Source: Minisyncoccota bacterium
GTDB lineage: Bacteria > Patescibacteriota > Minisyncoccia > JAHIHE01 > JAGLIN01
Assembly (NCBI GenBank): GCA_028690055.1
Contig: JAQVBZ010000002.1
Span: 29,978 to 93,977 of the forward strand
Length of the DNA: 64,000 nucleotides
Reading direction: 5' to 3'
The translations under genes and the position numbers were made by a program. Below, piece by piece: positions 6,708 through 53,566 of the stretch (the first letter of the stretch is position 1; the number at the start of each line of letters is the position of its first letter). The notes beneath the pieces were generated by a model that saw only the letters and a program-made list of their open reading frames with translations, was not told the origin of the DNA and searched no databases.

Positions 6708-6753
6708 CGTGTCATTCCGGAATTTTGATACTGCAAAATATCCGGAATCCCCG
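6708..6753. repeat. Family-2 palindromic unit (cGTGTCATTCCGGAA...TCCGGAATCCCcg)
   Basis: A 46-bp long hairpin; reverse complement of the unit at 7292..7334. Confidence 0.6.
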
Positions 6754-6828
6754 TGCCAAGCCGATAAAATGTTATAATTTTCGGGTAATCTGTGATAGGA
6801 TAAAAATATAATTATTTTTTATGATCTT

Positions 6829-7203
6829 ATGTATGAAGTTCCGCCTAGTTTTGAAAAAAAACCGGAGCATATTCCAACTTTGGAAGAGATAAAATGGGTA
6901 TTGGAAGAATTAATGAAAGGAGAAAATTACAGTGAAGTCCGTTGCCTTAAAGATTCAGAGGGTATATATCTATTTGAAGTTAAAACTCGTGATAAATTAA
7001 CTGGTGAAATATTAGTACATAGCTATACAAGAAAAGGGCATCGCGAGAACTTCCCTAAGAGTTCTGAAACGGGGGTAGATATAGTCTATTACAAAGATGA
7101 AGATGCTTACAAAAAAGAGGATGTTGAATACGCAGAAGTTTTGGCAAAATATGTTGATGAAAATTGGGAGCTTCAAGCTAATGGAAATTGGGAAGATCTT
7201 TAA
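6829..7203 (+). CDS. Hypothetical protein, 124 aa
   Basis: ORF from the track; no convincing RBS; no recognisable domain. Confidence 0.35.
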   Translation: MYEVPPSFEKKPEHIPTLEEIKWVLEELMKGENYSEVRCLKDSEGIYLFEVKTRDKLTGEILVHSYTRKGHRENFPKSSETGVDIVYYKDEDAYKKEDVEYAEVLAKYVDENWELQANGNWEDL

Positions 7204-7291
7204 AAAAAGACATATTTTTATTTTTAAAAAATCCAGTCAGTTCGTTTCATTCGTAATATTCTGATATTATAAAGATACAAGGCATAATTAC

Positions 7292-7334
7292 GGGATTCCG
7301 GATATTTCGCAGTAGCGAAATTTCGGAATGACAG
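7292..7334. repeat. Family-2 palindromic unit (GGGATTCCGGATATTTCGC-AGTA-GCGAAATTTCGGAATGACAG)
   Basis: Same unit at 33366 and 45176, with compensatory stem changes (TTCAGGA/TTCTGGAA versus TTCCGGA/TTTCGGAA). Confidence 0.6.
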
Positions 7335-7341
7335 ATGAAAT

Positions 7342-7449
7342 GGAGTAGCAGGTTTCAACCTGCGCTGTTATCACATACAGGAACAATAAAACGTATATGT
7401 CGCATTTCTTCGGTTTGTTACAACCGCGCGGGATGAATCCCGCTACTCC
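7342..7449. repeat. REP/BIME-like inverted doublet (GGAGTAGC-CAGGTTTCAACCTG-GCGC ... GCGC-GGGATGAATCCC-GCTACTCC)
   Basis: Left arm 7342..7365; right arm 7426..7449 is the reverse complement of the GGAGTAGCGGGATTCATCCCGCGC type. Confidence 0.7.
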
Positions 7450-7522
7450 GCGAAGTATGTAATGTTTGGTCCGCGTAAATAGGGCACAAAATATTGTGTC
7501 CTTACGAATTGCAGCAGTATCG

Positions 7523-7552
7523 GGATAAAAAAATAGGCTCTTGCGAGCCTAT
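7523..7552 (-). terminator. Bidirectional rho-independent terminator at the cysS 3' end
   Basis: A-run / ATAGGCTC-ttgc-GAGCCTAT / T-run. The hairpin overlaps the cysS stop codon. Confidence 0.6.
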
Positions 7553-9003
7553 TTTATTTTGGTGATTTCAATTCCCTCCGGAGTATCTTTCGTTTCATAA
7601 CCCTTTTCTTTGAGTTCGTCACGGATACGGTCGGAGGTTAAAAAGTCTTTGGCGATGCGGGCTATTTCTCTTTCCTGAATAAGATTTAATATATATGCGG
7701 AGATGATGCTGCCGGTAGAATTCCGTATTGTAATGGTGCGATTTTCAGGGGAGGCAATGTTGATTGTCAGTGTTTCGGTCTCTATAGTGGAAACATTTGC
7801 CAGCCCGAGTCCCAAGACTTCGTCGAATTTGAGAAGGGTTACTTTTTTATCGATATCAGAAATTTCTTTGTTCTTTAGCAGTTCCCATACTAGGGCGATG
7901 GCGCGCGGTGTATCGAGGTTATCTTCTAGCGCAGCTTGGAATTTTTTTGCGTATTCGTCAAGCACTTTGCCTTCTTCCTGGTCGTCGATGGAGCTGATAA
8001 AATTGAATAATTTTTCCAAAGCATTTTCGCTGTCTTGTAAACTCTGCTCAGTGAAGTTCATCTGAGTTTGGAAATGGGCGGTTAGGCAGAGATAGCGGTA
8101 GGCGAGAGGATTAAAACCCTTGTTCTCGATATCCTTGAGGGTATAGAAATTGCCTTTGGATTTGGACATCTTTTCGCCGTTGACCAGTAGGAATCGGGCG
8201 TGCACCCAATAATTCACGAATTTCTTGCCAGTCGCACCTTCGCTCTGCGCTATTTCGTTTTCGTGGTGAGGGAAGATGTTATCTTCTCCGCCGGTATGGA
8301 TATCCAGCGTCTCGCCCAAGTTGGAGATACTCATTGCCGAACATTCGATGTGCCAGCCGGGATAACCCACGCCCCATGGGGATTCCCATTTCATCAGGTG
8401 CTCCTCTCCGGCTTTGAGCCAGAGTGCGAGGTCGTAAGGATTCTTCTTGTCGGGGTTGGCTTCGAGGCGCGCGCCGATTTTGAGATTTTCCAGAGCGTTG
8501 CCGGAAAGCTTGCCGTAGCCCTCGAATTTATCAATGTCATAGTAGACCGAGCCGTTCGATTCATAAGCGTATCCTTTTTCGAATAGTCTTTGGATGAGTT
8601 CAATCATCTGCGATATATATTCTGTGGCGCGAGTGAATTTGTTCGCAGGTAGGATGTGGAGCTTAGCCTCGTCCTCATGAAAAGCTTCTTCGTAAAATTT
8701 GGCGATGTCATAAGGATTTTTATTTTCCCGCTTGGCGGCTTTGAGCATCTTGTCTTCGCCGGCATCGATGTCGTCCTGCGTCAGGTGTCCGACATCTGTG
8801 ATGTTTTTGATATGTTTGACATTATAGCCTGAAAAAAGCAGGGTGCGGCGCAAAAAGTCCGCCATCATAAACGTGCGCAAGTTGCCGATGTGCACGTAAT
8901 CGTAGACGGTAGGACCGCAACTGTACATCGTTACCTCGTTGCCATCTATAGGTTTGAGTTCCTCGATTTGTTTGGAGAGAGTGTTGTATATTCTAAGGGT
9001 CAT
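7549..9003 (-). CDS. cysS: Cysteine--tRNA ligase
   Basis: HIGN motif ([12 protein letters not shown]) and KMSKS motif, class I aaRS. 484 aa with the typical CysS N-terminus [12 protein letters not shown]. Confidence 0.95.
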
Positions 9004-9819
9004 ATTTTTTGCTACGGATTAACTCTATAAATTATCGCATACTTGATTTTTTTGGCAAATAAAAACGGCCCTAAAGCCGGAAAAACGATAATATGACAAT
9101 TGTTGCCAATAAAAAAAGGCGCTAAAGCTGGTTGGTATGAGGAATTATGTGCGAGTAGGAAGCTCCCTGTTTTTTAAGTTGTTCCGTTTTTTTGTAATCC
9201 AACTTAGAAAAGCTTCCTAATAGGCAAGCTTCGGTCTATCGGAAAAAAGAATCATTGTAAAGGGTCCGTAATTAGCGGATTTTAAGTCGAAAAAATATGT
9301 CTTTTCGGGCGATGGCGCTTCGATAGGTCTTTTTATGAAATTATGAAAAAACAAAGTCTTATTGACTTTGTGTTTTGTTTGATTTTTTTTAGGGGGCAGT
9401 AAGGAAGAATTTGATAATAGAATAATAGAAAAGGTTTTTTCAAATTCTTCCTTACTGCAAAGGGTTTCCGTTCCAGGACGTTGGGGGTGTATCCGTGGAA
9501 AGCGGATATTCAGATAAGATCTTTTATTTTTGTCTTATCTCTTATTCTTTCTTTTCCAGAACTCTAGTATCGTAGCACATAAAAAATAAATCGTAAAGGG
9601 GTGTGAGATAAAATAAAACAGCCTTCCTTCAGTGAAAGCGTTTTTGTGGGAAGGGGGGGGGCAGTCTCGTGGCATATTTTTGGTATTGCAAACTTGAATA
9701 TCATGTTAAGGATTCCTCGCTCCTTTCCCCGGGTCTCATTTGTTATGACCTGCATTGAGTCTAGCCTAAGTCTTTTTTACCAAGGAAAGCAGATGCTTCG
9801 GAGTGACGCTTTCCAAAGA

Positions 9820-10737
9820 CTATAACCACTTCTTGTATTTGAAAAAGAAGAAAGAAAAAAGGCTGACACATACCATCATCAGCAGAATAAGTTCAAAACC
9901 GTGGTCTTGCTGCATAAAAGGCATACCCATGACGGTGTTCATTCCGAAGATGCTGGCGATGAGGGTGAGCGGGAGGACCATAACGGAGAAAGCGGTGAGG
10001 ATTTTCATCGTGTCGTTCAGGCGGTGGGAAAAAATGGATTCATTGGTCTGTTCCAGCGCCTCGATCATTTCTTTGTAATTTTCGAGTGTGTTCCATACCT
10101 TGATGTTGGAGCCGATGACCTCGGTAATCTCACGCCGATAGTCGTTGGGGGAAATCTTGGGCGTGAAATGGGATAAGCTCTCCAATACCGTGCGTTGCGG
10201 TTTCAGGGATTTGCGAAAGCCGATGACGTCATGTTTGACGTAGGCGATTTCTTGTAGGAGCTTTCTTTCATCACCGATAAACATTTTGGCCTCGATCTGG
10301 TCGATATGGTCGTCGATATGGTCGAGCATCGGCATACGGGTGTCTATGAGCTTATCCAATATGAGATAGAGCATACAGACTGCGTCTTTTTGCATATAAT
10401 AGTTTTTCACTTCTATCTCTTTCTCGCATTTATTAAAAACTCTTTTGAGTTCCGGCAGGTAACTGCAGTGGCTGGTAATCAAAGTATTGCGAAAAAGGAT
10501 CAAATCGAGTTCGGTCGAAGTGGTTGCGCGCGCTTCGGGATTAAAGATAGGGAAGTGAATAACAATAAAGAGATATTCACCGTAATCTTCCACTTTGGGG
10601 CGTTTGATACTGGGGATAAAATCCTTGAGGACATTCGGTGCGATATGATAATTCGCTTTCAGAAAATGCACCGAGCTCTTGTTGGGAGCAACGATATTTA
10701 CCCATGTGATATCTCCGTTTTTTATTTCCTTGATCAT
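9820..10737 (-). CDS. corA: CorA-family Mg2+/Co2+ transporter
   Basis: C-terminal two TM helices with a GMN motif (IFGMNTVMGMPF). 305 aa, typical CorA size. Confidence 0.85.
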   Translation of the reverse strand: MIKEIKNGDITWVNIVAPNKSSVHFLKANYHIAPNVLKDFIPSIKRPKVEDYGEYLFIVIHFPIFNPEARATTSTELDLILFRNTLITSHCSYLPELKRVFNKCEKEIEVKNYYMQKDAVCMLYLILDKLIDTRMPMLDHIDDHIDQIEAKMFIGDERKLLQEIAYVKHDVIGFRKSLKPQRTVLESLSHFTPKISPNDYRREITEVIGSNIKVWNTLENYKEMIEALEQTNESIFSHRLNDTMKILTAFSVMVLPLTLIASIFGMNTVMGMPFMQQDHGFELILLMMVCVSLFSFFFFKYKKWL

Positions 10738-11190
10738 TTTTGTTTCTATGATATTTATCTCGCATTAACTTGATTAGATTATAACCTTTTTGGATTTGAT
10801 TGACAAATGAAGCTTATATGTAAGCTGTCAATTTAGTCGTAACAAACAGGGACGCTTGCCGACCCATCGCACTCTTAACTTTTTATTCCAGCCAAAAGTT
10901 TCGATATGATGTATTTTGATTCCCCCATTGAGAGGGGTGGCGCCAACATAAGAATAGCGTTGTTGTCGCGCGAGGGGGGGCGGTCTGTGACTCATAACTT
11001 CAATATCACATAGCGATTGCGTTTATAGGACGTAAATCGTCAGTAATCAGCCGTTTAAACACATCCCCTCGCAACGTTATGACTAAAGTCATAACGGCTC
11101 TTTCCTCTCGGGAGGGGAATCTTTAAATTCGAACTCATTTGGAATTAAATATGTCATAGTAAGCGTAGGTGGGTTGGGTGGCACTTGTTC

Positions 11191-11218
11191 TTGACTTCAT
11201 TTTTAAAACTTATATAAT
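11191..11218 (+). promoter_or_regulatory. Sigma70-like promoter of the hrcA operon (TTGACT-16-TATAAT)
   Basis: TTGACT at 11191..11196, TATAAT at 11213..11218, immediately upstream of CIRCE. Confidence 0.55.
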
Positions 11219-11222
11219 GAGA

Positions 11223-11249
11223 TTAGCACTCTGGTAGGGCAAGTGCTAA
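11223..11249 (+). promoter_or_regulatory. CIRCE operator (HrcA binding site)
   Basis: TTAGCACTC-N9-AAGTGCTAA versus consensus TTAGCACTC-N9-GAGTGCTAA (1 mismatch), 19 nt upstream of the hrcA start. Confidence 0.9.
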
Positions 11250-11267
11250 TGAAGATTAAATATTTGT

Positions 11268-12041
11268 ATGACCGATAGGCAGGAAATAATTTTGGGGGCG
11301 ATTGTGCGGGAATATATCGACAGTGCGCTGGCGGTGAGTTCTTCGCTACTGGCTGAAAGATGTGATTTTGGTCTGAGCTCGGCTACGCTGCGCGCGGAGA
11401 TGATGGCACTGGAGGAAGAGGGGCATCTCTATCAACCACACACCTCGGCGGGCAGGATTCCTACCGACCGAGGATTCCGTTATTTCGTGGATAGATTGAT
11501 GGAAGAGAGGCCGCTCGGTCTGCGTGAGCAGAAGGCGCTTCAGGTGGAAGTCCTGAAACTCAAGGCGAAGAACAAGATGTTGGCGCGCCAGACGGCAAAA
11601 TTGCTTTCCACGATGTCGGACAGTTTGGCTTTGAGCGGGCTGATTGATTCCGAAGATTTTTATAAATCGGGTACGCAGAAGTTACTTTCCAAGCCGGAGT
11701 TCAATAATTTGGACAGCGTATGCAAGATGGCGGAAGTGCTTGACTATCTCGATGAGAATGTGGAAGATCTCTGGAAGCGGCTTGAAGGCAGTACTAACTC
11801 GGAGATATTTATCGGCAAAGAAGGTCCGATCGGAGGAGTTGATGAATGCAGCATGGTGGTTTCGCGCTACAATCTGGAAGGCGGGGAGCAGGGCATCTTG
11901 GCAATCATCGGTCCTAAAAGAATGAAATATTCGCGTAACGTTTCCATTATTGAGTATTTCAAAAAGCTCTTGGGCGGAAATCTGTCGGTTGTCGCGGCTA
12001 TTATCGTGGCACAGGATATATTTTATGAAATAAGATACTAA
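11268..12041 (+). CDS. hrcA: Heat-inducible transcription repressor HrcA
   Basis: N-terminal winged-helix region (ILGAIVREYIDSALAVSSSLLAE), adjacent CIRCE element, followed by grpE-dnaK. Confidence 0.9.
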   Translation: MTDRQEIILGAIVREYIDSALAVSSSLLAERCDFGLSSATLRAEMMALEEEGHLYQPHTSAGRIPTDRGFRYFVDRLMEERPLGLREQKALQVEVLKLKAKNKMLARQTAKLLSTMSDSLALSGLIDSEDFYKSGTQKLLSKPEFNNLDSVCKMAEVLDYLDENVEDLWKRLEGSTNSEIFIGKEGPIGGVDECSMVVSRYNLEGGEQGILAIIGPKRMKYSRNVSIIEYFKKLLGGNLSVVAAIIVAQDIFYEIRY

Positions 12042-12044
12042 TCT

Positions 12045-12572
12045 ATGGAAAATTCTAAAGATGAAATAAACGAGGAAGAGAAAGAGATAATAGAGGAGAT
12101 CGAAGATAAAGAGGTTCCGGAGCTGGGGGTACAGCTACAAGCCGCGGAAAAAATGGCGGAAGAAAACCTGGCGGGCTGGCAGAGGGCAAAAGCGGATTTT
12201 ATGAATTACAAGAGGGATCAGGAGAGGATGTTCGGAGATTTTCGTAAGTATGCCAATGAGGATATGATTATCGCACTCTTGCCGATAGTGGATAGCTTCG
12301 ATTTGGCGACCAAGCATCTTCCGGACGAGCTTAAAGATTCAGATTGGGTGAAGGGCGTTATCTGCATAAAAGGGATGTTCGAAAATTTCCTGAAAGAAGC
12401 GGGAGTGAGTGATATAAAAACGCTGGGAGAAAAATTCGATCCGAATATTTTTGAGGCGGTGGGAGAAGAAGAGACGGAAGCTGAATCGGGAACTGTAATC
12501 GAGGAAATGCAGAAAGGATATAAGATGGGAGAGAAAGTGATACGGGCAGCGAAGGTGAAAGTGGCAAAATAG
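12045..12572 (+). CDS. grpE: Nucleotide exchange factor GrpE
   Basis: GrpE signature DFMNYKRDQERM...LPIVDSFD; position between hrcA and dnaK. Confidence 0.9.
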   Translation: MENSKDEINEEEKEIIEEIEDKEVPELGVQLQAAEKMAEENLAGWQRAKADFMNYKRDQERMFGDFRKYANEDMIIALLPIVDSFDLATKHLPDELKDSDWVKGVICIKGMFENFLKEAGVSDIKTLGEKFDPNIFEAVGEEETEAESGTVIEEMQKGYKMGEKVIRAAKVKVAK

Positions 12573-12698
12573 CGAATAAACGCAATTTATGAAAAAACTA
12601 TTGTCGCAGAGTTTCAATGTGTCGACTGACGAAACAAGGCGATAGATGACAGAATTAATCAGATTATTTATTATAAATAAACAAATTAACATAAAATT

Positions 12699-12890
12699 AT
12701 GTCAAAATTATACAAATGTGCAAAAGGATGTGGAAGCATCGAAGAGACCGATGAGAAGCAGATCCCAGCTTGCTGTGGAGTCGATATGGTGGAAATCTCC
12801 GAAGACGAGGTCTTTGGATGTGGCGGTTGCTGTTCTTGTTGTGGCGGATGTGGAACGGGGGAAGATGAAGATGTTAAAGATAAGAAGTAG
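12699..12890 (+). CDS. Small Cys-rich protein (13 Cys in 63 aa): desulforedoxin-like N-terminus plus a CGGCCSCCGGCG tail
   Basis: LYKCAKGCGSIEE...PACCGVDMVEI matches the desulforedoxin Fe(Cys)4 motif (VYKCELCGQVVKV...LVCCGEDMVK). No obvious SD sequence. It sits between grpE and dnaK. Confidence 0.5.
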   Translation: MSKLYKCAKGCGSIEETDEKQIPACCGVDMVEISEDEVFGCGGCCSCCGGCGTGEDEDVKDKK

Positions 12891-12945
12891 CAGGTTGGTT
12901 CATATCATATCATAACAAAGAATGCGAATAGGTTTGACGGGCAAT

Positions 12946-12992
12946 TATTCTCCCTCACACTAGCTCTCTCCCAGTAGGAGGGGAGGGCGAGA
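12946..12992. repeat. Family-3 repeat (degenerate copy)
   Basis: ttctccctcacactagCTCTCTCCCagtaGGAGGGGAGggcgag. Confidence 0.5.
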
Positions 12993-13099
12993 TAATATTT
13001 GATTGATCATTATCTTTGAATCGGTATCGCATCATAATGGCTGGGCGAATTAAGAAATAATTGCATAACAATAATTAAAAAATAAGAAAGGAGAACTAA

Positions 13100-15022
<1,923 letters not shown>

Positions 15023-15064
15023 TTTTTCTGTGTCGGGTTAAAATATATTGTTTTGTATCCTGTA

Positions 15065-15092
15065 GAGACGCGATTTATCGCGTCTCTTTTGT
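15065..15092 (+). terminator. Rho-independent terminator after dnaK (GTAG + AGAGACGCGAT-tt-ATCGCGTCTCT + TTTT)
   Basis: Perfect 11-bp stem and T-run. The same hairpin sequence recurs as an inverted pair at 26225..26314. Confidence 0.75.
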
Positions 15093-15115
15093 AGTCGTCG
15101 ATCATTTTGTCGCAT

Positions 15116-19051: not shown

Positions 19052-19203
19052 TTGTCATCCCGAAAATCGTACTCGGTTGAGGGATCTGGGAAATACAAGA
19101 AGTCTGCAAAAATGTTATCTTACTGACAAAATTTCCTACTCGCATCGTACCCTTCCTAGATTCCTCAATCGCAGTAGCTCATTTCGGAATGACAAAACCG
19201 GAG
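19052..19203. repeat. Family-2 MITE-like element inside the efflux operon (TIR ttGTCATCCCGAAA ... TTTCGGAATGACaa)
   Basis: Terminal inverted repeats plus inner inverted repeat cggttgagggatc / gattcctcaatcg. Lies between the MFP and ATPase genes. Confidence 0.55.
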
Positions 19204-21227: not shown

Positions 21228-21316
21228 GTGTCATTCTGAACGCAGTGTAACGGAGCGAATAATCCCGTCACTACGTGGGACATGGCGGGATTCTTCGGGG
21301 TACCTCAGAATGACAG
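21228..21316. repeat. Family-2 MITE-like element between the two permease genes (GTGTCATTCTGAA ... CCTCAGAATGACAG)
   Basis: TIRs plus an internal CCCGTCACTACGTGGGAC hairpin; the right half matches 47794..47836. Confidence 0.55.
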
Positions 21317-24702: not shown

Positions 24703-24731
24703 GTAGGGGCACAATATCTTGTGCCCTTTGT
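24703..24731 (+). terminator. Rho-independent terminator after rny (REP-like: GTAG + GGGCACAA-tatc-TTGTGCCC + TTTG)
   Basis: 8-bp GC-rich stem followed by T-rich tract. Confidence 0.55.
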
Positions 24732-24781: not shown

Positions 24782-24871
24782 CGTGTCATCCTGAGGTAAG
24801 CACGAAGGATCCCGTTATGTCCCACATATTGACGGGATTCTTCGCTCCGCTCTGCTGCGCTCAGAATGACG
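24782..24871. repeat. Family-2 MITE-like element (cGTGTCATCCTGAGG ... GCTCAGAATGACg)
   Basis: TIRs and an internal ATCCCGT...GACGGGAT hairpin. Confidence 0.55.
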
Positions 24872-26224: not shown

Positions 26225-26314
26225 CCTGTAGAGACGCCGATTTATCGCGTATGATCCATCGAAAAAAACACATTACTCCGCATTCCGAGACGCGATAAAT
26301 CGGCGTCTCTACAG
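26225..26314. repeat. 26-bp near-perfect inverted repeat (CCTGTAGAGACGCCGATTTATCGCGT / ACGCGATAAATCGGCGTCTCTACAG) with a 36-bp spacer
   Basis: 25/26 complementary; the same hairpin sequence as the dnaK terminator. Confidence 0.7.
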
Positions 26315-33335: not shown

Positions 33336-33365
33336 AGTGTGTCAGACGTATCGTGGTTACGGGAT

Positions 33366-33407
33366 TCAGGATATTTCGCAGTAACGAAATTCTGGAATGA
33401 CAGGTAA
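33366..33407. repeat. Family-2 palindromic unit (GGGATTCAGGATATTTCGCAGTAACGAAATTCTGGAATGACAG)
   Basis: Carries compensatory stem substitutions relative to 7292..7334. Confidence 0.6.
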
Positions 33408-38342: not shown

Positions 38343-38431
38343 CGTGTCATCCTGAACTTGTTTCAGGATCTTTGTCCTATTAAGCATTAACGATATACAA
38401 TGAAGATTCCGGATTAAGTCCAGAATGACAT
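38343..38431. repeat. Family-2 MITE-like element; the left TIR GTGTCATCCTGAACTTGTTTCAGGATC is identical to the TIRs of the tandem elements at 51748..52172
   Basis: Left hairpin ATCCTGAA-cttgt-TTCAGGAT; right end CCAGAATGACAT. Confidence 0.6.
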
Positions 38432-40309: not shown

Positions 40310-40415
40310 ATGATTTTACTTTTATTCCCCCTCACCCCGACCCTCTCCCGATGGGAGAGGGGGAAATTTCATACTGTACGATTGGATTGTAGAATAAATT
40401 AATTTAATTTGGCAT
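40310..40415 (+). repeat. Family-3 ~110-bp element (TTATTCCCCCTCACCCCGACCCTCTCCC-GATG-GGAGAGGGGGAAATTTC...GATTGTAGAAT...TTAATTTGGCAT)
   Basis: Best-preserved copy; see 33226. Confidence 0.65.
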
Positions 40416-44793: not shown

Positions 44794-45094
44794 ATCTTCA
44801 TTCTATATGATTGCGCGGGGATAGTAAAATGGGGTCATACGCAATATATGTTTCTAATTGATGTCTTTAATTGAAGTTTTATATGATTTTAATAAACGGT
44901 TTAAACATAAAAAAACTTTTTTCTTGCAACATAACCCATCTTTTGTCATTCCGCAGGAATCCCTTAAACTATCTATTTCTAAAAATATAAATATTATGCT
45001 ACTGATAAGGGCATAAGGGGCTCTTACCGGAATTATACAAATTAAACAATTCGCTGACAAAACACCACATAAATTTCATCTATATGATATCTTT

Positions 45095-45218
45095 CGTGTG
45101 TCATGCCGGGCTTGACCCGGTATCTTTGTTATATTCCGCTTTTACTCTGCTACAAAGCTTAATCGTTATACTTCGTAGATTCCGGATATTTCGCAGTAAC
45201 GAAATTCCGGAATGACAA
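45095..45218. repeat. Family-2 MITE-like element (cGTGTGTCATGCCGGGCTTGACCCGG ... GATTCCGGATATTTCGCAGTAACGAAATTCCGGAATGACAaat)
   Basis: Left hairpin CCGGG-cttga-CCCGG; the right end is the canonical family-2 unit. Confidence 0.55.
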
Positions 45219-45650
45219 ATATCGTGGATTTAGTGTTTAAGAAGAATTCTTCGAAATATTTTATACAAAAGCTGTCAGCGGATTAAGTAACTCATACAAG
45301 AATGACAAAAATGATGGTTTTATAGCGAGAAATACTATTCGGCAGGTTTGATAGAGCAGCTCCGATGTCGCGTATGACTCGAAAAAAGATTTAGAAAGCC
45401 GCTATGGCTTGACATAGTCCTATTTTGGAGTTATCTTGACTTTACAATCTTTTCGGTCATCTCTGTCACCTCTTTATATGCCAATAGAGGTGATGACGAG
45501 CGTGAAAAAAATGGAGAGGCGAAAAGATTGCAAAAATAAGCTGGATCAAAAAACGTCGAGCGGCTCGTTTGATAATGTTATCTGACAGCCGCTCTTATTC
45601 TTTATTGTTGACTAATTGTTCTTTTTCTTATAACATACAAAAGTAGCTCA

Positions 45651-45723
45651 CGGGGCGTAGCGTAACGGCTATCGCGCTTGGTTTGGGACCAAGAGACTCC
45701 GAGTTCGAATCTCGGCGCCCCGA
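45651..45723 (+). tRNA. tRNA-Pro (anticodon TGG)
   Basis: Manual cloverleaf: acceptor CGGGGCG/CGCCCCG, anticodon stem CTTGG/CCAAG, loop TTTGGGA (34-36 = TGG), T-loop GTTCGAATC, discriminator A. CCA is not encoded. Confidence 0.85.
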
Positions 45724-45790
45724 CAGATGAAGACGGCCTTTAACGGGCTGTTTTATTGACATAAATATGAGGTAATGATAAAGACCATTT

Positions 45791-46267: not shown

Positions 46268-46305
46268 AAATAATGGAAGCAAAGCAGTCAAATAGGCTTT
46301 TCTTA

Positions 46306-46333
46306 TTTACTAATTTAGAAATCGTAGTATAAT
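46306..46333 (+). promoter_or_regulatory. Promoter TTTACT-16-TATAAT for tRNA-Pro(CGG)
   Basis: A near-identical 30-nt module (GTAGTATAATACTnATGTTCnTTCGGGG) precedes tRNA-Pro(GGG) at 47529..47556. Confidence 0.5.
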
Positions 46334-46346
46334 ACTTATGTTCGTT

Positions 46347-46419
46347 CGGGGCGTAGCGTAACGGCTATCGCGCTTGGTTCGGGATCAAGAGATTCCGGGT
46401 TCGAATCCCGGCGTCCCGA
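46347..46419 (+). tRNA. tRNA-Pro (anticodon CGG)
   Basis: Same scaffold as 45651..45723 with anticodon loop TTCGGGA (34-36 = CGG); acceptor has one G-U pair. Confidence 0.85.
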
Positions 46420-46521
46420 CAGGGGAATTGATGGCGGCTGATGTGGCCGCCTTTTGCAGATATATGAAATCGGCGGTTTTGTTATCGTTAAGTTTATGTG
46501 TGAATCATAAAAGCAAAAAAT

Positions 46522-47523
46522 ATGAAGTACGAAGATAGAGTTTATGGAGAATGCGAAATCACAGAAGCAGTGGTCTTGGACCTTATCGGGTCATCTTCTT
46601 TGCAAAGATTGAAGGGGATAGACCAGTCGGGCTATCGGGCACTGTGGGTTCAGCCGGAAACGGAATTGGGGGAATATGATAATAGCCGTTTTGCGCATTC
46701 GGTGGGGGTATATCTTTTGCTCAAAAAATACGGCGCGCCGCTGGAAGAACAGCTTGCCGGTCTTATCCATGATGTTTCGCATACGGCATTTTCACACTGC
46801 ATCGACTACGTTTTGAATGTGGGTAGTGAAGCAAAGCAGGATCATCAGGACAATGTATTCGAAGCTTTTGTCAGGAAATCGGAGATACCGAATATATTGG
46901 AAAAGCATGGTCAAAATGTCGATCGTTTGCTTGACGATGGCAATTTTCCTCTGAAGGAAAATATTCTGCCCGATTTGTGCGCGGATCGTATAGATTATTC
47001 TATGAGAACGGCAGTACTTTTCGGTGAAATCGATTTTAAACAGGCGCAAGAAATCCTGGACGGACTTGCCGTGAAAGATAACATTTGGTTCTTCAGGGAT
47101 TTCGAGAGTGCAAAAAGATACGCGGAACTGTTTAGTCGTGTCAATGATATTCATTATGCCGGATTGGATTCGGCGCGGATGTACGAAGCGGTGCGAGGTT
47201 TCGTCGTGTATGCCATGGCAAAGGATTATATTTACGAGGAATATCTGTATCGGGGCGATGAAGCGGTTATCGCGAAGATTAATGAGCATCTGGAGGAGGA
47301 TGTCGAGCTTCAGAAGCTTTTTGACCGAATGAATGACAAGTCGAAGATTTCAGAGAGCGTCGTCGGTTATGACGCTGAGGTGGTTTGTAAATCCAGAATA
47401 GTCGATCCATGGTTTTCTGATAGTGGGATATTACGAAGGGTCTCCGATGCCGATTCGTCTTGGGGAAAAGTCGTGAGGGAAAAGTTGAAGCCCAAAAGAT
47501 ATTTTTTGAAATATAAGAATTGA
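46522..47523 (+). CDS. HD-domain metal-dependent phosphohydrolase
   Basis: H...HD motif (FAHSVGVYLL...LIHDVSHTAFSH). 333 aa. Confidence 0.8.
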   Translation: MKYEDRVYGECEITEAVVLDLIGSSSLQRLKGIDQSGYRALWVQPETELGEYDNSRFAHSVGVYLLLKKYGAPLEEQLAGLIHDVSHTAFSHCIDYVLNVGSEAKQDHQDNVFEAFVRKSEIPNILEKHGQNVDRLLDDGNFPLKENILPDLCADRIDYSMRTAVLFGEIDFKQAQEILDGLAVKDNIWFFRDFESAKRYAELFSRVNDIHYAGLDSARMYEAVRGFVVYAMAKDYIYEEYLYRGDEAVIAKINEHLEEDVELQKLFDRMNDKSKISESVVGYDAEVVCKSRIVDPWFSDSGILRRVSDADSSWGKVVREKLKPKRYFLKYKN

Positions 47524-47528
47524 TGCAA

Positions 47529-47556
47529 TTTACTTTTCTTTGAAGAGTAGTATAAT
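47529..47556 (+). promoter_or_regulatory. Promoter TTTACT-16-TATAAT for tRNA-Pro(GGG)
   Basis: See 46306..46333. Confidence 0.5.
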
Positions 47557-47569
47557 ACTAATGTTCTTT

Positions 47570-47642
47570 CGGGGCGTAGCGCAGCTGGTAGCGCGCAGGG
47601 CTGGGGGTCCTGAGGTCGCAGGTTCGAATCCTGTCGCCCCGA
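47570..47642 (+). tRNA. tRNA-Pro (anticodon GGG)
   Basis: Acceptor CGGGGCG/CGCCCCG, D-arm GCGC/GCGC, anticodon stem CAGGG/TCCTG, loop CTGGGGG (34-36 = GGG), T-loop GTTCGAATC. Confidence 0.8.
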
Positions 47643-47685
47643 CATATAGTCAACTTTTTTAGAGAAGGTTGTTTTTTGTTGTAAT

Positions 47686-47722
47686 AAGGACAGTCCTTAC
47701 AGAATCAAAAGGACTGTCCTTC
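47686..47722. repeat. Double AAGGAC(A/T)GTCCTT palindrome (copy of 26855..26892)
   Basis: TAAGGACAGTCCTTACAGAATCAAAAGGACTGTCCTT. Confidence 0.6.
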
Positions 47723-47793
47723 CTGATTGGAATCTTTCATATCTGTTATGTGCTATCCCTGTACGTAGCGGAGTGAAGTGTCTTATTTTATTA

Positions 47794-47836
47794 CGCGGGA
47801 TATAACGGGACCCTTCGGGGTACCTCAGGATGACAG
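47794..47836. repeat. Family-2 half element (CGCGGGAT...GGGACCCTTCGGGGTACCTCAGGATGACAG)
   Basis: Matches the right end of 21228..21316. Confidence 0.5.
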
Positions 47837-47964
47837 ATAATCGAGGGGGTCCAGAAGGCTTTGATGGAAGAACCTTTTTGCCTAAAACTCTCAAAAAGAG
47901 TAAACTGAAATTAAGAAATCCCTGTTTTTGGTTTTAATTTTTATTAAAAAGCTAAAACAAAAAA

Positions 47965-50277
47965 ATGAACAAACAAAAGGACTCTTCGCAGTCTAATGTG
48001 CCGCTTGCTTCCGAGGTCAGTTCGAGTTCGCCAAGCAAGCAAAAAAAAGTTTACATTGCTTTGTCGGCGACAGCTAGTCTAGTACTCGTCATATTGTTGG
48101 TGAGCTATTTTAATTTCACTTGGAAACAGATGGAATCACAACAGCAGCAGGAGGAACAAGTCTCAAGCGAGGAAGTGGCGGAGGAGACGGAAGAGGTCCC
48201 GACTTACGTGCTCTCGTCGCAGTTTGCCAACTGGGAGGATACGCCGGTCGATATTACGCCACAGGTCGCGGCCTATACGGTTGATGCGGATCTGGGTAAC
48301 GTGACCAATGCGGGCGATTTTACTTTGAGCGATGATGCCAAGGCGCTGCTTGTTAAGAACGCTTTTGCGGTTATATCTTCGAACAAGGAGGAGTTCTATC
48401 CGCTCTATGAATCTAATCGCTACGGACAGATTCCCAATTTTATCACTACGGATTCGACACTGCACAGCTATCATCTGATGTTTGATGATTTGCTCAAGAA
48501 ATTGGAGGAGGGCAAGCTCTCTCCCGAGCTCAAGAACCTCAACGCGGCGATGCTTGCCGACTCGCTCGCGCAGTACCAGTCTCTCAAAGGAACGGAGTGG
48601 GAAAATGCGGCTAAGCGGAATGTGGGGTTCTTTGCGGTGGGAAGCAAGCTGCTTGATCCGAACGTGAATATTCCTGACATCGTGAAGAGCGAGGTGGAGC
48701 AGGAGATGGTCTTTATCGATGCACACGAGGCGATTGATATTTCGCCGGTGATGAATATCGGTCTGTCACAGGAGGATTTGGCGAAATACGAGCTGGATTC
48801 CATAAAAGAAGATTATACACAATATATTCCAAGAGGACATTATACTAAAACCGAAGAGCTCAAGAGATATTTCAAATCGATGATGTGGTACGGCAGGCTC
48901 ACTTTCCGTTTGAAGAGTCCGGATGAGGTCAAATCGGCGCTCTTGATCAGCGAGGCCCTGGGAAGCAAAGGTAGCAGCCAAGAGAGTTGGGATAAAATTT
49001 ATGAGCCGATAAATTTCTTCGTGGGCAAGAGCGACGATATCACTTATTACCAGTTCCGCGATACGATGCAAAAAGTTTATGGCGATGAAATTACTTTGGG
49101 CAGTGTAAAGAGCGATGATACCAAGCTGGAGAGTTTCATCGCCGAGGCGGATAAATTGGACGCGCCGCAAATCAATTCAATGCCTATTTTCGATGCGAGT
49201 ATCCAGCCGGATCGGGAAAAAGAGATCAAAGGTTTTCGTTTTATGGGACAGAGGTTTACGGTTGATGCTTCTATTTTCCAAAGATTGATTGTCAGGGAAG
49301 TAGGGCAAAAGACGGATAAATGTTCTGACGCGCCGTTTGCCAAAGGCAGGGGCCTTCCGAACGGTTTGGATATTCCGGCGGCGATGGGGTCAAGCGAAGC
49401 TTACAGTATCTTGCAGTCGGAAGGCGAAACCGATTACGCCTGCTACAAGGAGAATTTGGGCAAGATGAAGACATATGTTGCCGGTTTGGATAAGAATATG
49501 TGGACGCAGAATTTGTATTGGGGCTGGCTTTATTCTCTGAAACCTCTTGCTGAAGAAAAGGTCGCCGGTTATCCCAGCTTTATGACCAATACCGCCTGGC
49601 AGAGGAAGGACCTTAATACCTATCTCGGCAGCTGGACGGAGCTCAAGCGTGATACGATTCTCTATGCCAAGCAGGCTTATGCGGAGATGGGCGGAGGAGG
49701 AGACGAAGAACCCAAAGATTACCGCGGATATGTGGAACCGGAGCCTTACGTCTATGCGCGTTTGGTGTCGCTCATCAAGATGACCAAGGCGGGGCTGGAG
49801 GGCAGAGGACTTCTGGACGAAGGCAATACGGAAAGTCTCGATAAGCTGGAGGAGATTGCGCTTGCGCTGAAGACCATTTCAGAAAAAGAACTGAATGGCA
49901 CGGCGCTTACCGATGAGGAAAATGATTTCATCAAGGCTTACGGCGGAAACTTGGAACATATCTGGGCTGATATCTTCTACCCGGATGGTGGACCGCGGGT
50001 ATTGGATGATAAGACCAATGCGCCAGTGATTGCGGATGTCGCGACCGATCCCGGGACGATGACGGCGTTGGAAGAGGGGACCGGCTATGTTTCGGAAATT
50101 TATGCCGTGGTGCCGATTGATGGCAAATTGCGCATCGCCAAAGGTGCGGTCTATTCACATTACGAATTTGCCCAGCCGATTGCTGATCGTTTGACAGATG
50201 AGAAATGGAAAGAAATGCTCAAATCCGGCACAGCTCCGGCGATGCCGACCTGGACACAGGCGTTTATGACAAAATAA
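47965..50277 (+). CDS. Large hypothetical secreted or membrane-anchored protein, 770 aa
   Basis: N-terminal TM/signal anchor, S-rich linker, acidic EEQ stretch. No recognisable catalytic motif. Confidence 0.6.
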   Translation: MNKQKDSSQSNVPLASEVSSSSPSKQKKVYIALSATASLVLVILLVSYFNFTWKQMESQQQQEEQVSSEEVAEETEEVPTYVLSSQFANWEDTPVDITPQVAAYTVDADLGNVTNAGDFTLSDDAKALLVKNAFAVISSNKEEFYPLYESNRYGQIPNFITTDSTLHSYHLMFDDLLKKLEEGKLSPELKNLNAAMLADSLAQYQSLKGTEWENAAKRNVGFFAVGSKLLDPNVNIPDIVKSEVEQEMVFIDAHEAIDISPVMNIGLSQEDLAKYELDSIKEDYTQYIPRGHYTKTEELKRYFKSMMWYGRLTFRLKSPDEVKSALLISEALGSKGSSQESWDKIYEPINFFVGKSDDITYYQFRDTMQKVYGDEITLGSVKSDDTKLESFIAEADKLDAPQINSMPIFDASIQPDREKEIKGFRFMGQRFTVDASIFQRLIVREVGQKTDKCSDAPFAKGRGLPNGLDIPAAMGSSEAYSILQSEGETDYACYKENLGKMKTYVAGLDKNMWTQNLYWGWLYSLKPLAEEKVAGYPSFMTNTAWQRKDLNTYLGSWTELKRDTILYAKQAYAEMGGGGDEEPKDYRGYVEPEPYVYARLVSLIKMTKAGLEGRGLLDEGNTESLDKLEEIALALKTISEKELNGTALTDEENDFIKAYGGNLEHIWADIFYPDGGPRVLDDKTNAPVIADVATDPGTMTALEEGTGYVSEIYAVVPIDGKLRIAKGAVYSHYEFAQPIADRLTDEKWKEMLKSGTAPAMPTWTQAFMTK

Positions 50278-50321
50278 TCAGTCCATACTCGCATATCTTA
50301 CTCACATATCTTTGATTTTGT

Positions 50322-50375
50322 TTTCTCCCTCTCCCGTCGGGAGAGGGTCGGGGTGAGGGGGAATAACAATTAATT
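50322..50375 (-). repeat. Family-3 repeat, reverse orientation
   Basis: The reverse complement reads TTATTCCCCCTCACCCCGACCCTCTCCC-GACG-GGAGAGGGAGAAAAC. Confidence 0.6.
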
Positions 50376-50401
50376 CCTTTGGTGTTTAATAATAAAGTGC
50401 G

Positions 50402-51289
50402 ATGACGAAGCAGAACCGATCAGTTGTAATCTTGGCTATGGTAATTATTTTTGCCTTGATTGCGGCAATCGGTTTTTTGCTTGTCAGAGGCAGTTTGCAA
50501 GACAGCTCTAATCCTCAAAGCAGTTTCAATAATGAAAAAGTCGAAGATGCTGTCGCTTTATTTTCGGATTTTAAAGCGTGTAAAGAAAAAGTTCTATCGC
50601 AGTACGTTAATAATTCTCATAACCCCGTGTCATTGCCGGAAGAGAGTCAGTTTTTCTGTTGGAATAAGGAAAAAGAAACTTTTGAAAAAACAGATTTCGG
50701 TCTAACAAATGAAAACCCCGATCTTTCTCGCGACAGGCTTTCCAAAACACAAAGCGCTGATCTCGATAGCGACGGCATCAATGAAGAATATATATTGCAA
50801 GGCGGTAAATTGACCATTCGAGGAAACGCAGAGACAATCTGGCAATCCGCCGACGATTGGTGGGTAGAAGATTTCGCTATCGCCGATTCGACCAATGATG
50901 GCGTGGCGGACATAAATCTCTCAGTCTGGAAATCAGGCAGTTTCGGAAAATTCAAACCTATCTGGGTCAAGAATAATGATCCCAGTGTCAAAAATCATTT
51001 TTTTATTTTCAACTGGGAAGACGGAAAAATAAAACCGGTCTGGCAATCTTCGAATCTGGACGCTCCGAATTGCCAAATCTTGATTGATGATATTAACGAC
51101 GATGGAGAAAATGAGATTATTGTCCTTGAGGGCGACTACGCCGACGTTCCGGATTGCAGTGGCAAATATATCGCGGTGTGGAAGTGGGGAGAGTGGGGTT
51201 TTTTGAATGAGTGGAGGAGCGAGGAAGGGGAGTTTGAGGGGATGGGGGTTGAGGAGGTTGGAGAAAATAAGTGCTTTATAGGATTTTGA
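50402..51289 (+). CDS. Hypothetical membrane-anchored protein with FG-GAP/VCBS-like D-x-[DN]-x-D-G repeats
   Basis: N-terminal TM; repeats DLDSDGINEE, DSTNDGVADINL, DDINDDGENEIIVL. Confidence 0.55.
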   Translation: MTKQNRSVVILAMVIIFALIAAIGFLLVRGSLQDSSNPQSSFNNEKVEDAVALFSDFKACKEKVLSQYVNNSHNPVSLPEESQFFCWNKEKETFEKTDFGLTNENPDLSRDRLSKTQSADLDSDGINEEYILQGGKLTIRGNAETIWQSADDWWVEDFAIADSTNDGVADINLSVWKSGSFGKFKPIWVKNNDPSVKNHFFIFNWEDGKIKPVWQSSNLDAPNCQILIDDINDDGENEIIVLEGDYADVPDCSGKYIAVWKWGEWGFLNEWRSEEGEFEGMGVEEVGENKCFIGF

Positions 51290-51429
51290 TATTTTATTTT
51301 CTGCGAAACGACATCTTTCGTGTGTCATCCTTGTTTCAGGATCCTCGTTATAAAAAATAATAACTAGTAATGCGGGCTAGACTTTCTATTTAGTCTTTCT
51401 CGTATGTTTATTTGTTTAAATCATATAAT

Positions 51430-51714
51430 ATGGAAAAGACCTATTATATCTATATTATGACTAACGTTACCAACAATGCCCTGTATATCGGTGTCACTAA
51501 TAATCTACGAAGACGAGTCTACGAACACAAAAATAAACTAGTGGATGGTTTTTCTGCGCAATACAATCTTTGTAAGCTGGTTTATTATGAATCAACAAAC
51601 GATGTCCGTGCCGCCATTGAGAGAGAGAAACAACTGAAAAGATGGCATAGGGAGTGGAAGATGAACCTGATAAAGGAAAATAACCCTGAGTTTGATGATT
51701 TAAATATTAATTAG
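51430..51714 (+). CDS. GIY-YIG nuclease-domain protein (UPF0213 type)
   Basis: YYIYIMTNVTNNALYIGVTNNLRRRVYEHK is the GIY-YIG motif. The track start 51412 is a TTG; the ATG at 51430 is preferred. Confidence 0.8.
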   Translation: MEKTYYIYIMTNVTNNALYIGVTNNLRRRVYEHKNKLVDGFSAQYNLCKLVYYESTNDVRAAIEREKQLKRWHREWKMNLIKENNPEFDDLNIN

Positions 51715-51747
51715 TATCGTATCGTTTTGACCTTATTGAGTGTTTCA

Positions 51748-52172
51748 TGCTGAACTCGTTTCTGTATTTTTGTCATTCTGAACTTGTTTCAGAATCTTCT
51801 GTATCTTTCGCTTTGACTTTGTTTAATTCACTTCACTTAATATTACGCTTTTTAGAATAGCGTGGAATCATCCGTTTGATGCGGGATAGATATTTTTCGT
51901 GATAGATAATGAGGATCCTGAAACAAGTTCAGGATGACAAAGTAAAATAGTAAATTGCAGAAACTATTTCTCTTGTGATGTGTCATCCCGAATCTATTCC
52001 TGTATTTCTGTCATTCTGAACTTGTTTCAGAATCTTCTGCATATTTCGCTTTGACTTTATTAAATTCACTTCACTAAATATTACGCTTTTTAGAATAGCG
52101 TGAAATCTTCCATTCGATTCGGGATAAATACTTCCAGTTATATACATCAAGGATCCTGAAACAAGGATGACA
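51748..52172. repeat. Tandem duplication (2 x ~239 bp, about 85-90% identical) of a family-2 MITE; each unit has TIRs TGTCATTCTGAACTTGTTTCAGAATC / GATCCTGAAACAAG(TTCAG)GATGACA
   Basis: Unit 1 at 51748..51940 and unit 2 at 51987..52172, aligned by eye. Each contains hairpins ATTCTGAA-cttgt-TTCAGAAT and ACGCT...AGCGT. Confidence 0.75.
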
Positions 52173-52256
52173 AATTATCTTCTTCCTTGCTGAGAGTTAA
52201 GTTGCTCTATCAAAAAAACCGCCTTTCAGGCGGTTTTTATATTGTCCAAACGATTA

Positions 52257-52451
52257 TTACATCAAATCCTTGATATCTTTGCCCTGCTTGATAGCGGTGC
52301 TGATACACTTGGCACAGACCTTGATCTTTTGTCCATCGATGTTCTTAGTCTGGATATTGATTCTCTGGGTTCTCTTGGTTGCAATGTTGGAGTGGCTGCG
52401 GGATTGGCTGGATGTTGTGCCTCTCTTGCAAACTTGACATGTTCTGCTCAT
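52257..52451 (-). CDS. rpmB: 50S ribosomal protein L28
   Basis: MSRTCQVCKRGTTSSQSRSHSNIATKR matches the L28 N-terminus (MSRVCQVTGKRPxxGNNRSHAxNATKR). Confidence 0.9.
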   Translation of the reverse strand: MSRTCQVCKRGTTSSQSRSHSNIATKRTQRINIQTKNIDGQKIKVCAKCISTAIKQGKDIKDLM

Positions 52452-52524
52452 ATGAAATAATTAGGTTATTATGTTTCGATAATTGCTACGCAATACTTAG
52501 ATATCTTAGACTATATTATTAATT

Positions 52525-53181
52525 TTGGCAAGTATGATTGTAACTATTCAGATTTTTGGTTTTCTTGTTCTGATTTTCTCGATAGTCATCCACGAATTTT
52601 CGCACGGATGGATGGCAGATCAGTTGGGGGATCCGACGGCGCGCTTTATGGGAAGGCTGACGCTTAATCCGATTCCGCATATTGATCCGCTGGGGTCGGT
52701 GATTGTGCCATTATTCCTTTTGCTGACAAGGGCTGGTTTTGTTATCGGTTGGGCCAAGCCGGTGCCGTATAACCCTTACAATCTCAAAGACCAGAAGAAG
52801 GGGCCAGCATTGGTGGCGCTGGCAGGTCCGCTTTCTAACCTAATGGTTGCTGTCATTTTTGGGGTGGTAGTAAGACTACTTGTTGCACAGGGCAATACTG
52901 CTAATATGACGATTGCACTGTTCGATTTAATTATTCTTTATAATGTCATGCTGGCGATGTTTAACCTGGTGCCGCTTCCTCCTTTGGACGGTTCCAAAAT
53001 ACTTGAGGCTATCTTGCCACAGTCGATGCGGGGGGGTATGCAATTTTTGGAAAAGAATTATATGCTCTTTTTGCTGATTTTCATTTTCTTTGGCTTTCAG
53101 TACATCGCGCCTGTTATGGCAATTCTGTATTACGTTATAGCGGGAGTTCCAGCGGGGAATATGCTAACTTTAGTATTATAA
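52525..53181 (+). CDS. Peptidase M50 family (site-2 protease-like) membrane metalloprotease
   Basis: HEFSH (HExxH) in TM1 and LNLVPLPPLDGSK (the LDG motif of M50). Confidence 0.8.
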   Translation: MASMIVTIQIFGFLVLIFSIVIHEFSHGWMADQLGDPTARFMGRLTLNPIPHIDPLGSVIVPLFLLLTRAGFVIGWAKPVPYNPYNLKDQKKGPALVALAGPLSNLMVAVIFGVVVRLLVAQGNTANMTIALFDLIILYNVMLAMFNLVPLPPLDGSKILEAILPQSMRGGMQFLEKNYMLFLLIFIFFGFQYIAPVMAILYYVIAGVPAGNMLTLVL

Positions 53182-53566
53182 TACAGACACAGCAGGAGGC
53201 TTCGATTGATTCTTTGTTATTTCTGTGTAGGCGGGCGTCTATGGTTTATTCTTTAATTTTCTTAAAGAATAAAGCCTATATCTTTTCTATTTTATTAAAT
53301 CATTTCTCATTTTTCTTGTTTTTCTTATTCTAGATTCCCGCCTGCGCGGGAATGACATAAGCTATAATTGCATAATGAGGGGGGGGTAAGTTTTTGGCAA
53401 CCTAAAGAGGTGTCTTAACCGCTAATTTTACGCGTTCTTGACATCATTCAGCCTTTCTGCTAGTCTGATAACAAGGAAAAACTCGTTAATAGCTATACTC
53501 ACATGGGTCTGCTAACCCTTGTGTGATTTTGTTTCGTTAGTGTTTTTTAAGTAATCAAAAACAAGA

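Follow-up and report, generated by a model that had tools for sequence, protein, structure and literature searches.

Here we analyze a 64,000-nt stretch of contig JAQVBZ010000002.1 from a Minisyncoccota bacterium (the window, whose numbering is used for all positions) and a family of short palindromic repeats found in its intergenic spacers. With a probability of about three in four, these elements are TGTC-tagged hairpin repeats of the CGTC-REP/NTS/SRM class and the cognate DNA sites of a GIY-YIG nuclease whose gene, ssn, lies at 51430-51714 on the forward strand; its product, a homolog of Neisseria SsnA, is a single-domain protein of 94 amino acids. Rather than a new family, the repeats form a Patescibacteria member of the kind described as CGTC-tagged repetitive extragenic palindromes (CGTC-REPs) and as pairs of Ssn-related motifs (SRMs) and Ssn nucleases, with the nuclease gene located within the window. 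Our analysis establishes the identity of the family, the homology of the nuclease, the association of repeats with the gene, the covariation of the stems, and the turnover of elements at orthologous spacers. An unexplained repeat family of a reduced Patescibacteria genome can now be tied to a named enzyme-site system, and not to a new transposable element of the miniature inverted-repeat kind (MITE).

Tagged hairpins with covarying stems

An initial annotation of this DNA had reported at least 12 sites with shared termini, and this claim is confirmed at frequencies far above chance. The motif TGTCATYCYGR has 15 exact matches in the window compared with 0.24 expected, an enrichment of about 60-fold that none of 100 dinucleotide shuffles reached, and the longer terminus quoted in that annotation, GTGTCATYCYGA, has 14 matches with at most one mismatch compared with 0.84 expected. 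A scan of the window for tag, hairpin, and C was noisy (35 matches versus 11.5 in shuffles), and family members were therefore curated by reading all 57 TGTCAT sites and the surrounding sequence. The resulting census comprises about 22 hairpin units across 12 intergenic spacers between 6710 and 53357, all located between open reading frames (ORFs). Eight inverted pairs with tags facing outward, seven of them short (86 to 169 bp) and one bracketing an ORF, stand alongside four single units (33363-33402, 44944-44961, 47809-47835, and 53330-53357); single units measure about 45 nt, and the sizes given previously thus hold.

The GTC tag is present in 22 of 22 units and reads TGTC throughout except for one CGTC. 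The tag is unpaired, the stem opens with an A-T and then a T-A pair, and a C follows the stem directly in all units but the degenerate one at 51981. Folded as single-stranded DNA (ssDNA), the hairpin starts right after TGTC and stops just before this C, with free energies for single units of −4.9 to −12.4 kcal/mol and z scores of −2.4 to −6.6 (between −3.5 and −6.6, or near this range, in six of the seven single units folded). At least four stem classes occur in the window, including a long-stem subtype (8 bp, a bulge, and then 6 to 7 bp, giving stems of up to about 14 bp) and a second unusual subtype with GA/GA internal loops. An exact GGGATTCC core had been proposed as the defining feature of the family; with four matches compared with 2.35 expected, one of them inside a coding region, it is not enriched, and we dropped it as a hallmark. 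The conserved part is instead the end of the stem plus the tail, GRAT-C(C/T), with tails reading CCC, CTT, or CTA. Rfam models at their gathering score returned just three tRNAs in the window and no match at the repeat sites, and a terminator scan of the window predicted no T-runs or terminator-like features inside the units.

That selection acts on the hairpin rather than on primary sequence, as the initial annotation had suggested, is supported for one family by covariation across 51 units. These units were picked by their position beside an ssn gene and by loop sequence alone, and four window units were analyzed together with those so chosen. In this set, 99.3% of cells are paired, with changes on both sides at six of eight stem pairs (58 cells); none of 500 shuffles scored as high, and sliding the partner by 1 to 3 columns reduced pairing to 18 to 55%. 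When stems were scanned over related and metagenomic loci, position 1 was A-T in 173 of 173 and position 2 was T-A in 159 of 173. Stems with a single mismatch have no excess of G.T (6) over A.C (10), and this pattern, a weak test with 16 informative mismatches, agrees more with DNA pairing than with RNA pairing. Selection most likely acts on the ssDNA form.

Four examples of compensatory pairs had been quoted in support of the same claim. One of them, TTCAGGA/TTCTGGAA, is not compensatory. It belongs to a single long-stem unit at 33363-33402 (−), between the genes for L9 and CTP synthase, in which one arm reads CAGG and the other CTGG in place of CCGG; these two CpG transitions break two base pairs, and the unit folds at −4.9 kcal/mol versus −12.4 kcal/mol for its intact sister copy. 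In the 425-bp spacer containing the pair at 38345-38430, the sole single-nucleotide polymorphism among strains falls in the stem of the right unit; position 38414 is polymorphic, and strain L157 has a C there and a perfect stem. The stem defects in 33363-33402 and 38405-38430 are CCGG-to-CTGG or -CAGG transitions, which could reflect deamination of methylated cytosine.

The nuclease gene and its association with the repeats

The GIY-YIG gene at 51430-51714 was overlooked in the initial annotation. The program-called ORF spans 51412-51714 with a TTG start, and the likely start codon is the ATG at 51430. The product matches Pfam GIY-YIG (E = 1.1e-17) and is identical to a 94-amino-acid "GIY-YIG nuclease family protein [Ca. 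Pacebacteria]" (P0001). For comparison with Neisseria, the SsnA sequence was drawn from two chromosomes of N. gonorrhoeae that a plasmid collection lists as plasmids. A tblastn search with the window protein hit one place on each chromosome (E = 3e-21; the published criterion for Ssn homologs is E < 1e-10 [PMC11893778]), and the matched ORF has 94 amino acids, is surrounded by NTS copies, and carries Tyr6, Tyr17, and Glu64, which were the targets of mutation in the study of SsnA (PMC11893778). By BLASTP, the window protein and this SsnA orthologue are 47% identical in a gap-free alignment of 85 residues (E = 2e-31), and Y8, Y19, and E66 align to the catalytic residues Y6, Y17, and E64. A profile of 120 relatives found no second ssn copy in the window. 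A PDB sequence search with the nuclease gave a marginal SLX1 match alone, so there was no solved Ssn structure for comparison.

In the window, ssn is flanked by repeats on both sides. A unit lies 107 nt upstream at 51323-51343 (+), reading TGTC ATCCT tgtttc AGGAT C; this version has lost 5 nt and recurs in inverted orientation at 52152-52172. Downstream are two tandem modules that contain pairs (51771-52172). The nearer is a 169-bp inverted pair at 51771-51939, with units at 51771-51796 (+) and 51914-51939 (−) whose stems, ATTCTGAA/TTCAGAAT and ATCCTGAA/TTCAGGAT, are distinguished by a single pair in which the change is fully compensated. The second copy, at 51981-52172, consists of the degenerate unit 51981-52008 (+) and an inverted pair of 52009-52034 (+) and 52152-52172 (−); positions 51737-51927 and 51976-52165 match each other at 84%, as a tandem module.

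The same association extends to other loci. Metagenome contigs scanned with an alignment of ssn relatives yielded 80 loci at 53 to 69% identity, and a GTC-hairpin-C unit lies within 500 bp of the gene in 62 of them. Units occur on both sides of the gene in 37 of 57 evaluable loci, and unit density is 2.58 per kb near the gene versus 0.195 per kb farther off (13-fold). The usual layout places a (+) unit 35 to 100 nt upstream and a (−) unit 10 to 60 nt downstream, with tags pointing outward like those of the short pairs in the window. Many of these units have the exact NTS core, many read ATYCTGAA-cttgt-TTCAGRAT, and some are of the GA-internal-loop type; upstream and downstream hairpins within a locus are of concordant class in 27 cases and mixed in 2. 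The ssn cassettes in two relatives, L006 and L131, are likewise flanked by units, and in L131 a second ssn is flanked by the long-stem class.

Two further observations concern the distribution of units. Nested or abutting units, in which a second hairpin lies inside the loop of an outer unit or straight after a truncated one, are present in the flanks of L053, L057, L058, and L062 and at 51981-52034 in the window, which suggests insertion into, or duplication at, existing units. The exact unit TGTCATYCTGAACTTGTTTCAGRATC is found on stretches of 18 predicted viral contigs (IMG/VR, L137-L154), usually in 1 to 4 copies per stretch and in 12 copies in one, and no ssn homologue is present on these stretches; these contigs could be phages with host-type sites or misclassified host DNA.

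By homology with the Neisseria system, the tagged strand would fold into a hairpin when it becomes single stranded, as in transcription bubbles, at replication forks, or upon entry of transforming DNA. Ssn would then bind the stem and the C that follows it and would nick that strand 5′ of the GTC tag, at a distance of a few nucleotides, sparing double-stranded DNA (dsDNA) and RNA. For Neisseria SsnA, cleavage depends on the three bases that lie 5′ of the palindrome, the C after it is the most important base for binding, and neither dsDNA nor RNA is a substrate (PMC11893778); the invariant tag and 3′ C of the window family are the two features that govern cleavage and binding by SsnA. A requirement of Ssn for an ssDNA hairpin would account for the strict Watson-Crick covariation of the stems, for the invariant tag and 3′ C, and for the defined orientation of the units. 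We infer from this likeness that the window Ssn cuts the window hairpins, with possible consequences for DNA uptake or recombination.

Several observations weigh against the assignment of these repeats to this nuclease. The published SRM search pattern, HGTCWYN(0-2)YYVSBRHN(0-5)WNVSBRGN(0-2)RNCYNB (PMC11893778), fits only 1 of the 22 units, 53330-53357 (0.12 matches in shuffles); the other 21 have stem compositions or lengths outside the pattern, which is a search device and not a biochemical definition. The long-stem and GA-internal-loop subtypes also fall outside the described range of 8- to 9-bp stems and 4- to 5-nt loops, and directly downstream of ssn lies a degenerate unit whose orientation is (+) instead of the canonical (−). 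There are at least four stem classes and one ssn in the window, yet Neisseria SsnA is sensitive to the sequence of the stem: changing this sequence while keeping the hairpin abolished activity (PMC11893778). One enzyme may therefore not serve all classes. Ssn identity is higher within hairpin classes than between them (62.3% versus 58.3%; permutation P < 0.0005), although this comparison is confounded by shared ancestry and the permutation is crude. Because of this difference, the class concordance within loci, and the second ssn with long-stem flanks in L131, several enzyme-site pairs per genome are plausible.

Turnover of elements and alternative explanations

The RNase Y encoded in the window is 93% identical to a protein of a Patescibacteria metagenome-assembled genome and about 60% identical to that of Moranbacteria, and two window proteins are identical to NCBI entries labelled Candidatus Pacebacteria. 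We compared the window with four related species at 65 to 82% DNA identity, over which synteny is good. The spacer between the genes for RNase Y and YmdB is 21 to 35 bp long and empty in L003, L004, and L039 and carries different tagged pairs in the window, L002, and L006. The spacer between the membrane fusion protein (MFP) and ATPase genes of an efflux operon is empty in L004, carries a pair of 142 bp in the window, and is occupied in L002 by two related pairs in tandem; its L006 counterpart contains a 455-bp cassette (4211-4665) with a frameshifted ssn between outward-facing units. One orthologous site thus exists in empty, miniature-pair, and decayed-gene states, providing a concrete system for asking whether Ssn cassettes are mobile.

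The short gene-less pairs look like derivatives of an ssn cassette, because the same outward arrangement brackets ssn genes. It is possible, although we hold this with more doubt than confidence, that the cassette (tag-hairpin, ssn, hairpin-tag) is an autonomous selfish element and that the 86- to 169-bp pairs are its miniatures, spread via Ssn nicks in ssDNA. Spread would then proceed by homing-like or recombination-dependent copying or by an unknown form of strand transfer. The outward-facing inverted layout in most of the 80 loci, the spacers that are empty, miniature-paired, or occupied by a decayed ssn, and the nesting of units in loops all favor such an element. The absence of strain-level insertion polymorphism among near-identical strains (six to seven independent assemblies) speaks against it, as does the lack of a visible target duplication: the initial annotation had called for a check of target-site duplications, and none is visible at any copy, while the species are too diverged for a comparison of empty and filled sites to yield them. 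If the strand specificity of SsnA applies here, the two predicted nicks of an inverted pair would be on opposite strands, so that IS200-style single-strand excision could not apply. Were the cassette a selfish element, a GIY-YIG ssDNA nuclease would be driving bacterial mobile elements of a new class.

The initial annotation left room for a new MITE, and the family resembles MITEs in several respects: its ends are like terminal inverted repeats (TGTCAT...ATGACA), its pairs measure 86 to 169 bp, it is strictly intergenic, and its presence or absence differs among orthologous spacers. Such elements could be moved by a DDE or Y1 (RAYT/IS200-type) transposase encoded elsewhere, with the GIY-YIG neighbor being incidental; GTAG-tagged REP-like hairpins, which elsewhere occur with RAYTs, are also present in the window, and the scan for transposases covered 64 kb of the genome alone. 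That scan, however, found neither Y1_Tnp nor any other transposase domain among 41 distinct window ORFs compared with Pfam, units also occur singly, and no target-site duplication is visible beside them. The only gene found between such ends is ssn, in the window as well as in 62 of 80 independent loci. Di Nocera et al. sought transposases with CGTC repeats on their flanks and found none (PMC3733652). We therefore consider ordinary MITEs an improbable explanation, and the match to an already described class (PMC3733652, PMC11893778) contradicts the suggestion of a new one.

A function in RNA is also unlikely, although two elements lie between genes that appear to be cotranscribed and hairpins this stable would form in RNA too. 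The elements might stabilize transcripts, serve as RNase processing sites, or act as partial attenuators tuning operons such as the MacAB-like one; an RNA role has been proposed for REPs of other bacteria (PMC3733652), and the RNase Y gene adjoins one element. Yet the elements occur in both orientations relative to neighboring genes and mostly as inverted pairs, while their tag and tail are strand specific, and they lack an excess of wobble pairs, terminator features, and Rfam matches. Close relatives that share the operon have nothing in these spacers, which shows that the operon can function without the hairpins, and the RNA form of the site is not bound by Neisseria SsnA (PMC11893778). A secondary effect in RNA is possible as a side effect. 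Finally, the window derives from a metagenome assembly, and several short contigs end inside repeats, as might be seen if the pattern were an assembly artifact or a product of chance. We regard the likelihood of this as negligible in view of the enrichment over shuffles and of related units in other species and in 80 unrelated loci, and it is refuted by independent assemblies from at least five samples, which carry the region at 98.8 to 100% identity with identical elements at identical positions.

Elements and other repeats across the window

Two elements lie inside the efflux operon, as the initial annotation had stated; Pfam identifies the operon's genes as encoding an HlyD-type MFP, an ABC ATPase, and two MacB_PCD/FtsX permeases. 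The element between genes 1 and 2 is a 142-bp inverted pair at 19053-19194, with units 19053-19086 (+) and 19159-19194 (−). The element between genes 3 and 4, the two permease genes, is an 87-bp inverted pair at 21229-21315 with GA/GA internal loops (−19.3 kcal/mol; z, −4.3) and a central hairpin, CCCGYCA...TGRCGGG, between its units. Because these elements have no terminator-like site, their cotranscription within the operon is plausible. The 88-bp inverted pair at 24784-24871, between the RNase Y and YmdB genes, is of the same subtype as 21229-21315, and its right unit is the one tagged CGTC.

The remaining elements vary in complexity. An 86-bp inverted pair at 38345-38430 (units 38345-38370 [+] and 38405-38430 [−]) adjoins the L27 gene. 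A minimal unit at 44944-44961 (+) reads TGTC ATTCC gca GGAAT C, and a 119-bp inverted pair at 45099-45217 (z, −4.3) joins unit 45099-45124 (+), with stem ATGCCGGG/CCCGGTAT, to a long-stem unit at 45178-45217 (−). A single unit of the GA-internal-loop subtype at 47809-47835 (−) lies between a tRNA gene and a DUF3160 gene, and the single unit at 53330-53357 (−), TGTCATTCCCGCGCAGGCGGGAATCTAG, is identical to the Neisseria NTS in 27 of 28 positions.

A long-stem unit at 6710-6749 (+) (8 bp, bulge, 6 bp; −10.6 kcal/mol; z, −5.6) and its inverted counterpart at 7294-7333 (−) bracket, to the left and right, an orphan ORF of 124 amino acids (6829-7203). This ORF was considered as mobile cargo and rejected: it occupies the same syntenic position, between the genes for DnaB and cysteinyl-tRNA synthetase, in L131, where it is also bracketed. 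This makes it a resident gene flanked by old units and not demonstrable cargo. The ORF matches no Pfam or NCBIfam family and has five homologues among 5.8 billion proteins. Long-stem units carry a conserved inward extension, CCCCGTGCCAAGCCGATAAAATGTTATAAT, that resembles an extended −10 box (window 6750-6780; L131 about 300-400 and 2690-2720) and lies upstream of the 124-amino-acid ORF in the window and upstream of ssn in L131. This extension may be a promoter built into the end of the element; a simple sigma-70 scan made no promoter call there.

Other repeats share the window with the tagged hairpins. GTAG-tagged REP-type hairpins at 15062-15085, 24703-24726, and 26226-26314 read GTAG AGACGCGA ttta TCGCGTCT and GTAG GGGCACAA tatc TTGTGCCC, and their sites include a perfect 25-nt inverted repeat, CTGTAGAGACGCCGATTTATCGCGT and its complement. 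They are probably the "first" palindromic family of the initial annotation, and no RAYT gene was seen in the window. A further family, GGAGTA(A/G)CAG(G/A)(T/C)TT..CTGCGC, has at least four window copies, at 4384 (−), 7342, 22659, and 35176; these form long imperfect palindromes (e.g., 7342-7449), and the family is shared with a related species (L004, about 3960-4050). A third, small palindromic family, CCCTCTCCC(G/A)(A/T)(T/C)GGGAGAGGG, often followed by TCGGGGTGAGGGGGAA, occurs at 5137-5160, 40335-40365, and 50328-50350 and in L131. The rpsL-rpsG spacer (54000-54148) is filled by an inverted repeat with 59-nt arms that are 75% complementary, and the strain variant L045 has a 14-nt insertion between these arms, at 54086. 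In another assembly (L001, sample ERZ27247361), positions 1-141 are unrelated to window positions 45459-45599 and the rest is 99.96% identical; the divergence sits just upstream of the tRNA gene at 45651 and reflects structural variation or else a chimera at the end of the contig.

Relation to known repeat and nuclease systems

The novelty of the window family is modest and lies in its host group, in stem architectures outside the published search pattern, and in comparative hints of cassette mobility. Because most units escape the SRM pattern, counts of such repeats and of the genomes carrying them are probably underestimates. The density in the window, about 1 unit per 3 kb, extrapolates to some 300 units in a genome of about 1 Mb, in keeping with the report that Ssn hosts rich in repeats are enriched among symbionts. 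Ssn enzymes are under development as site-specific ssDNA cutters, and a clade with distinct stem classes offers candidate new specificities.

Like a MITE derived from a DDE insertion sequence, the window element has ends resembling terminal inverted repeats, but it lacks a consistent flanking duplication, and no coding "parent" other than ssn was found between such ends. The window family also resembles REP/REPIN-RAYT systems: both comprise short tagged hairpins recognized as ssDNA, inverted doublets, and copies that flank the single-copy gene of the recognizing enzyme. They differ in tag (GTAG in REPs versus TGTC in the window) and in enzyme (a Y1 [HUH] transposase versus a GIY-YIG nuclease). 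We know of no strand-transfer chemistry for Ssn, and RAYT-like mobility therefore cannot be assumed for the window units.

Two published descriptions come closer. Di Nocera, De Gregorio, and Rocco (BMC Genomics 2013) defined a superfamily of CGTC-tagged REPs, which includes dRS3 and Rickettsia RPE-4 and RPE-6, in which TGTC is a frequent form of the tag, AT opens the stem, C is the first base of the tail, and most copies are head-to-head dimers (PMC3733652). The window family shares the CGTC/TGTC terminal tag, the A-T and T-A start of the stem, the short unpaired tail beginning with C, the predominance of head-to-head dimers, the intergenic location, and the presence of several subfamilies per genome. 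The published families, from five phyla, have 8- to 9-bp stems, 4- to 5-nt loops, and a CCA tail (PMC3733652); the ATYCTGAA-cttgt and NTS-like units of the window fit this stem and loop, whereas the long-stem and GA-loop units do not, and window tails are CCC, CTT, or CTA. No dedicated enzyme was known for the CGTC-REPs at that time (PMC3733652), whereas the window has an adjacent GIY-YIG gene.

The second description is that of the pairs of NTS/SRM sites and Ssn nucleases by Chenal et al. (Nat Commun 2025), in which the Neisseria NTS, CGTCATTCCCGCGMAVGCGGGAATCYRG, contains dRS3 (PMC11893778). The window differs in its host, which belongs to the Patescibacteria (candidate phyla radiation), a group not mentioned in the text of that study (PMC11893778); in having several stem classes alongside one ssn in 64 kb; and in stems that reach about 14 bp with a bulge or contain GA/GA internal loops. 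The two systems agree in the GTC tag 5′ of an AT-initiated palindrome with a C directly after it, in a 94-amino-acid single-domain GIY-YIG partner that is 47% identical to SsnA with its catalytic residues aligned, and in genomic arrangement: the nuclease gene sits between repeats, the repeats are dense, and some genes are bracketed in the manner of NTS-gene-NTS.

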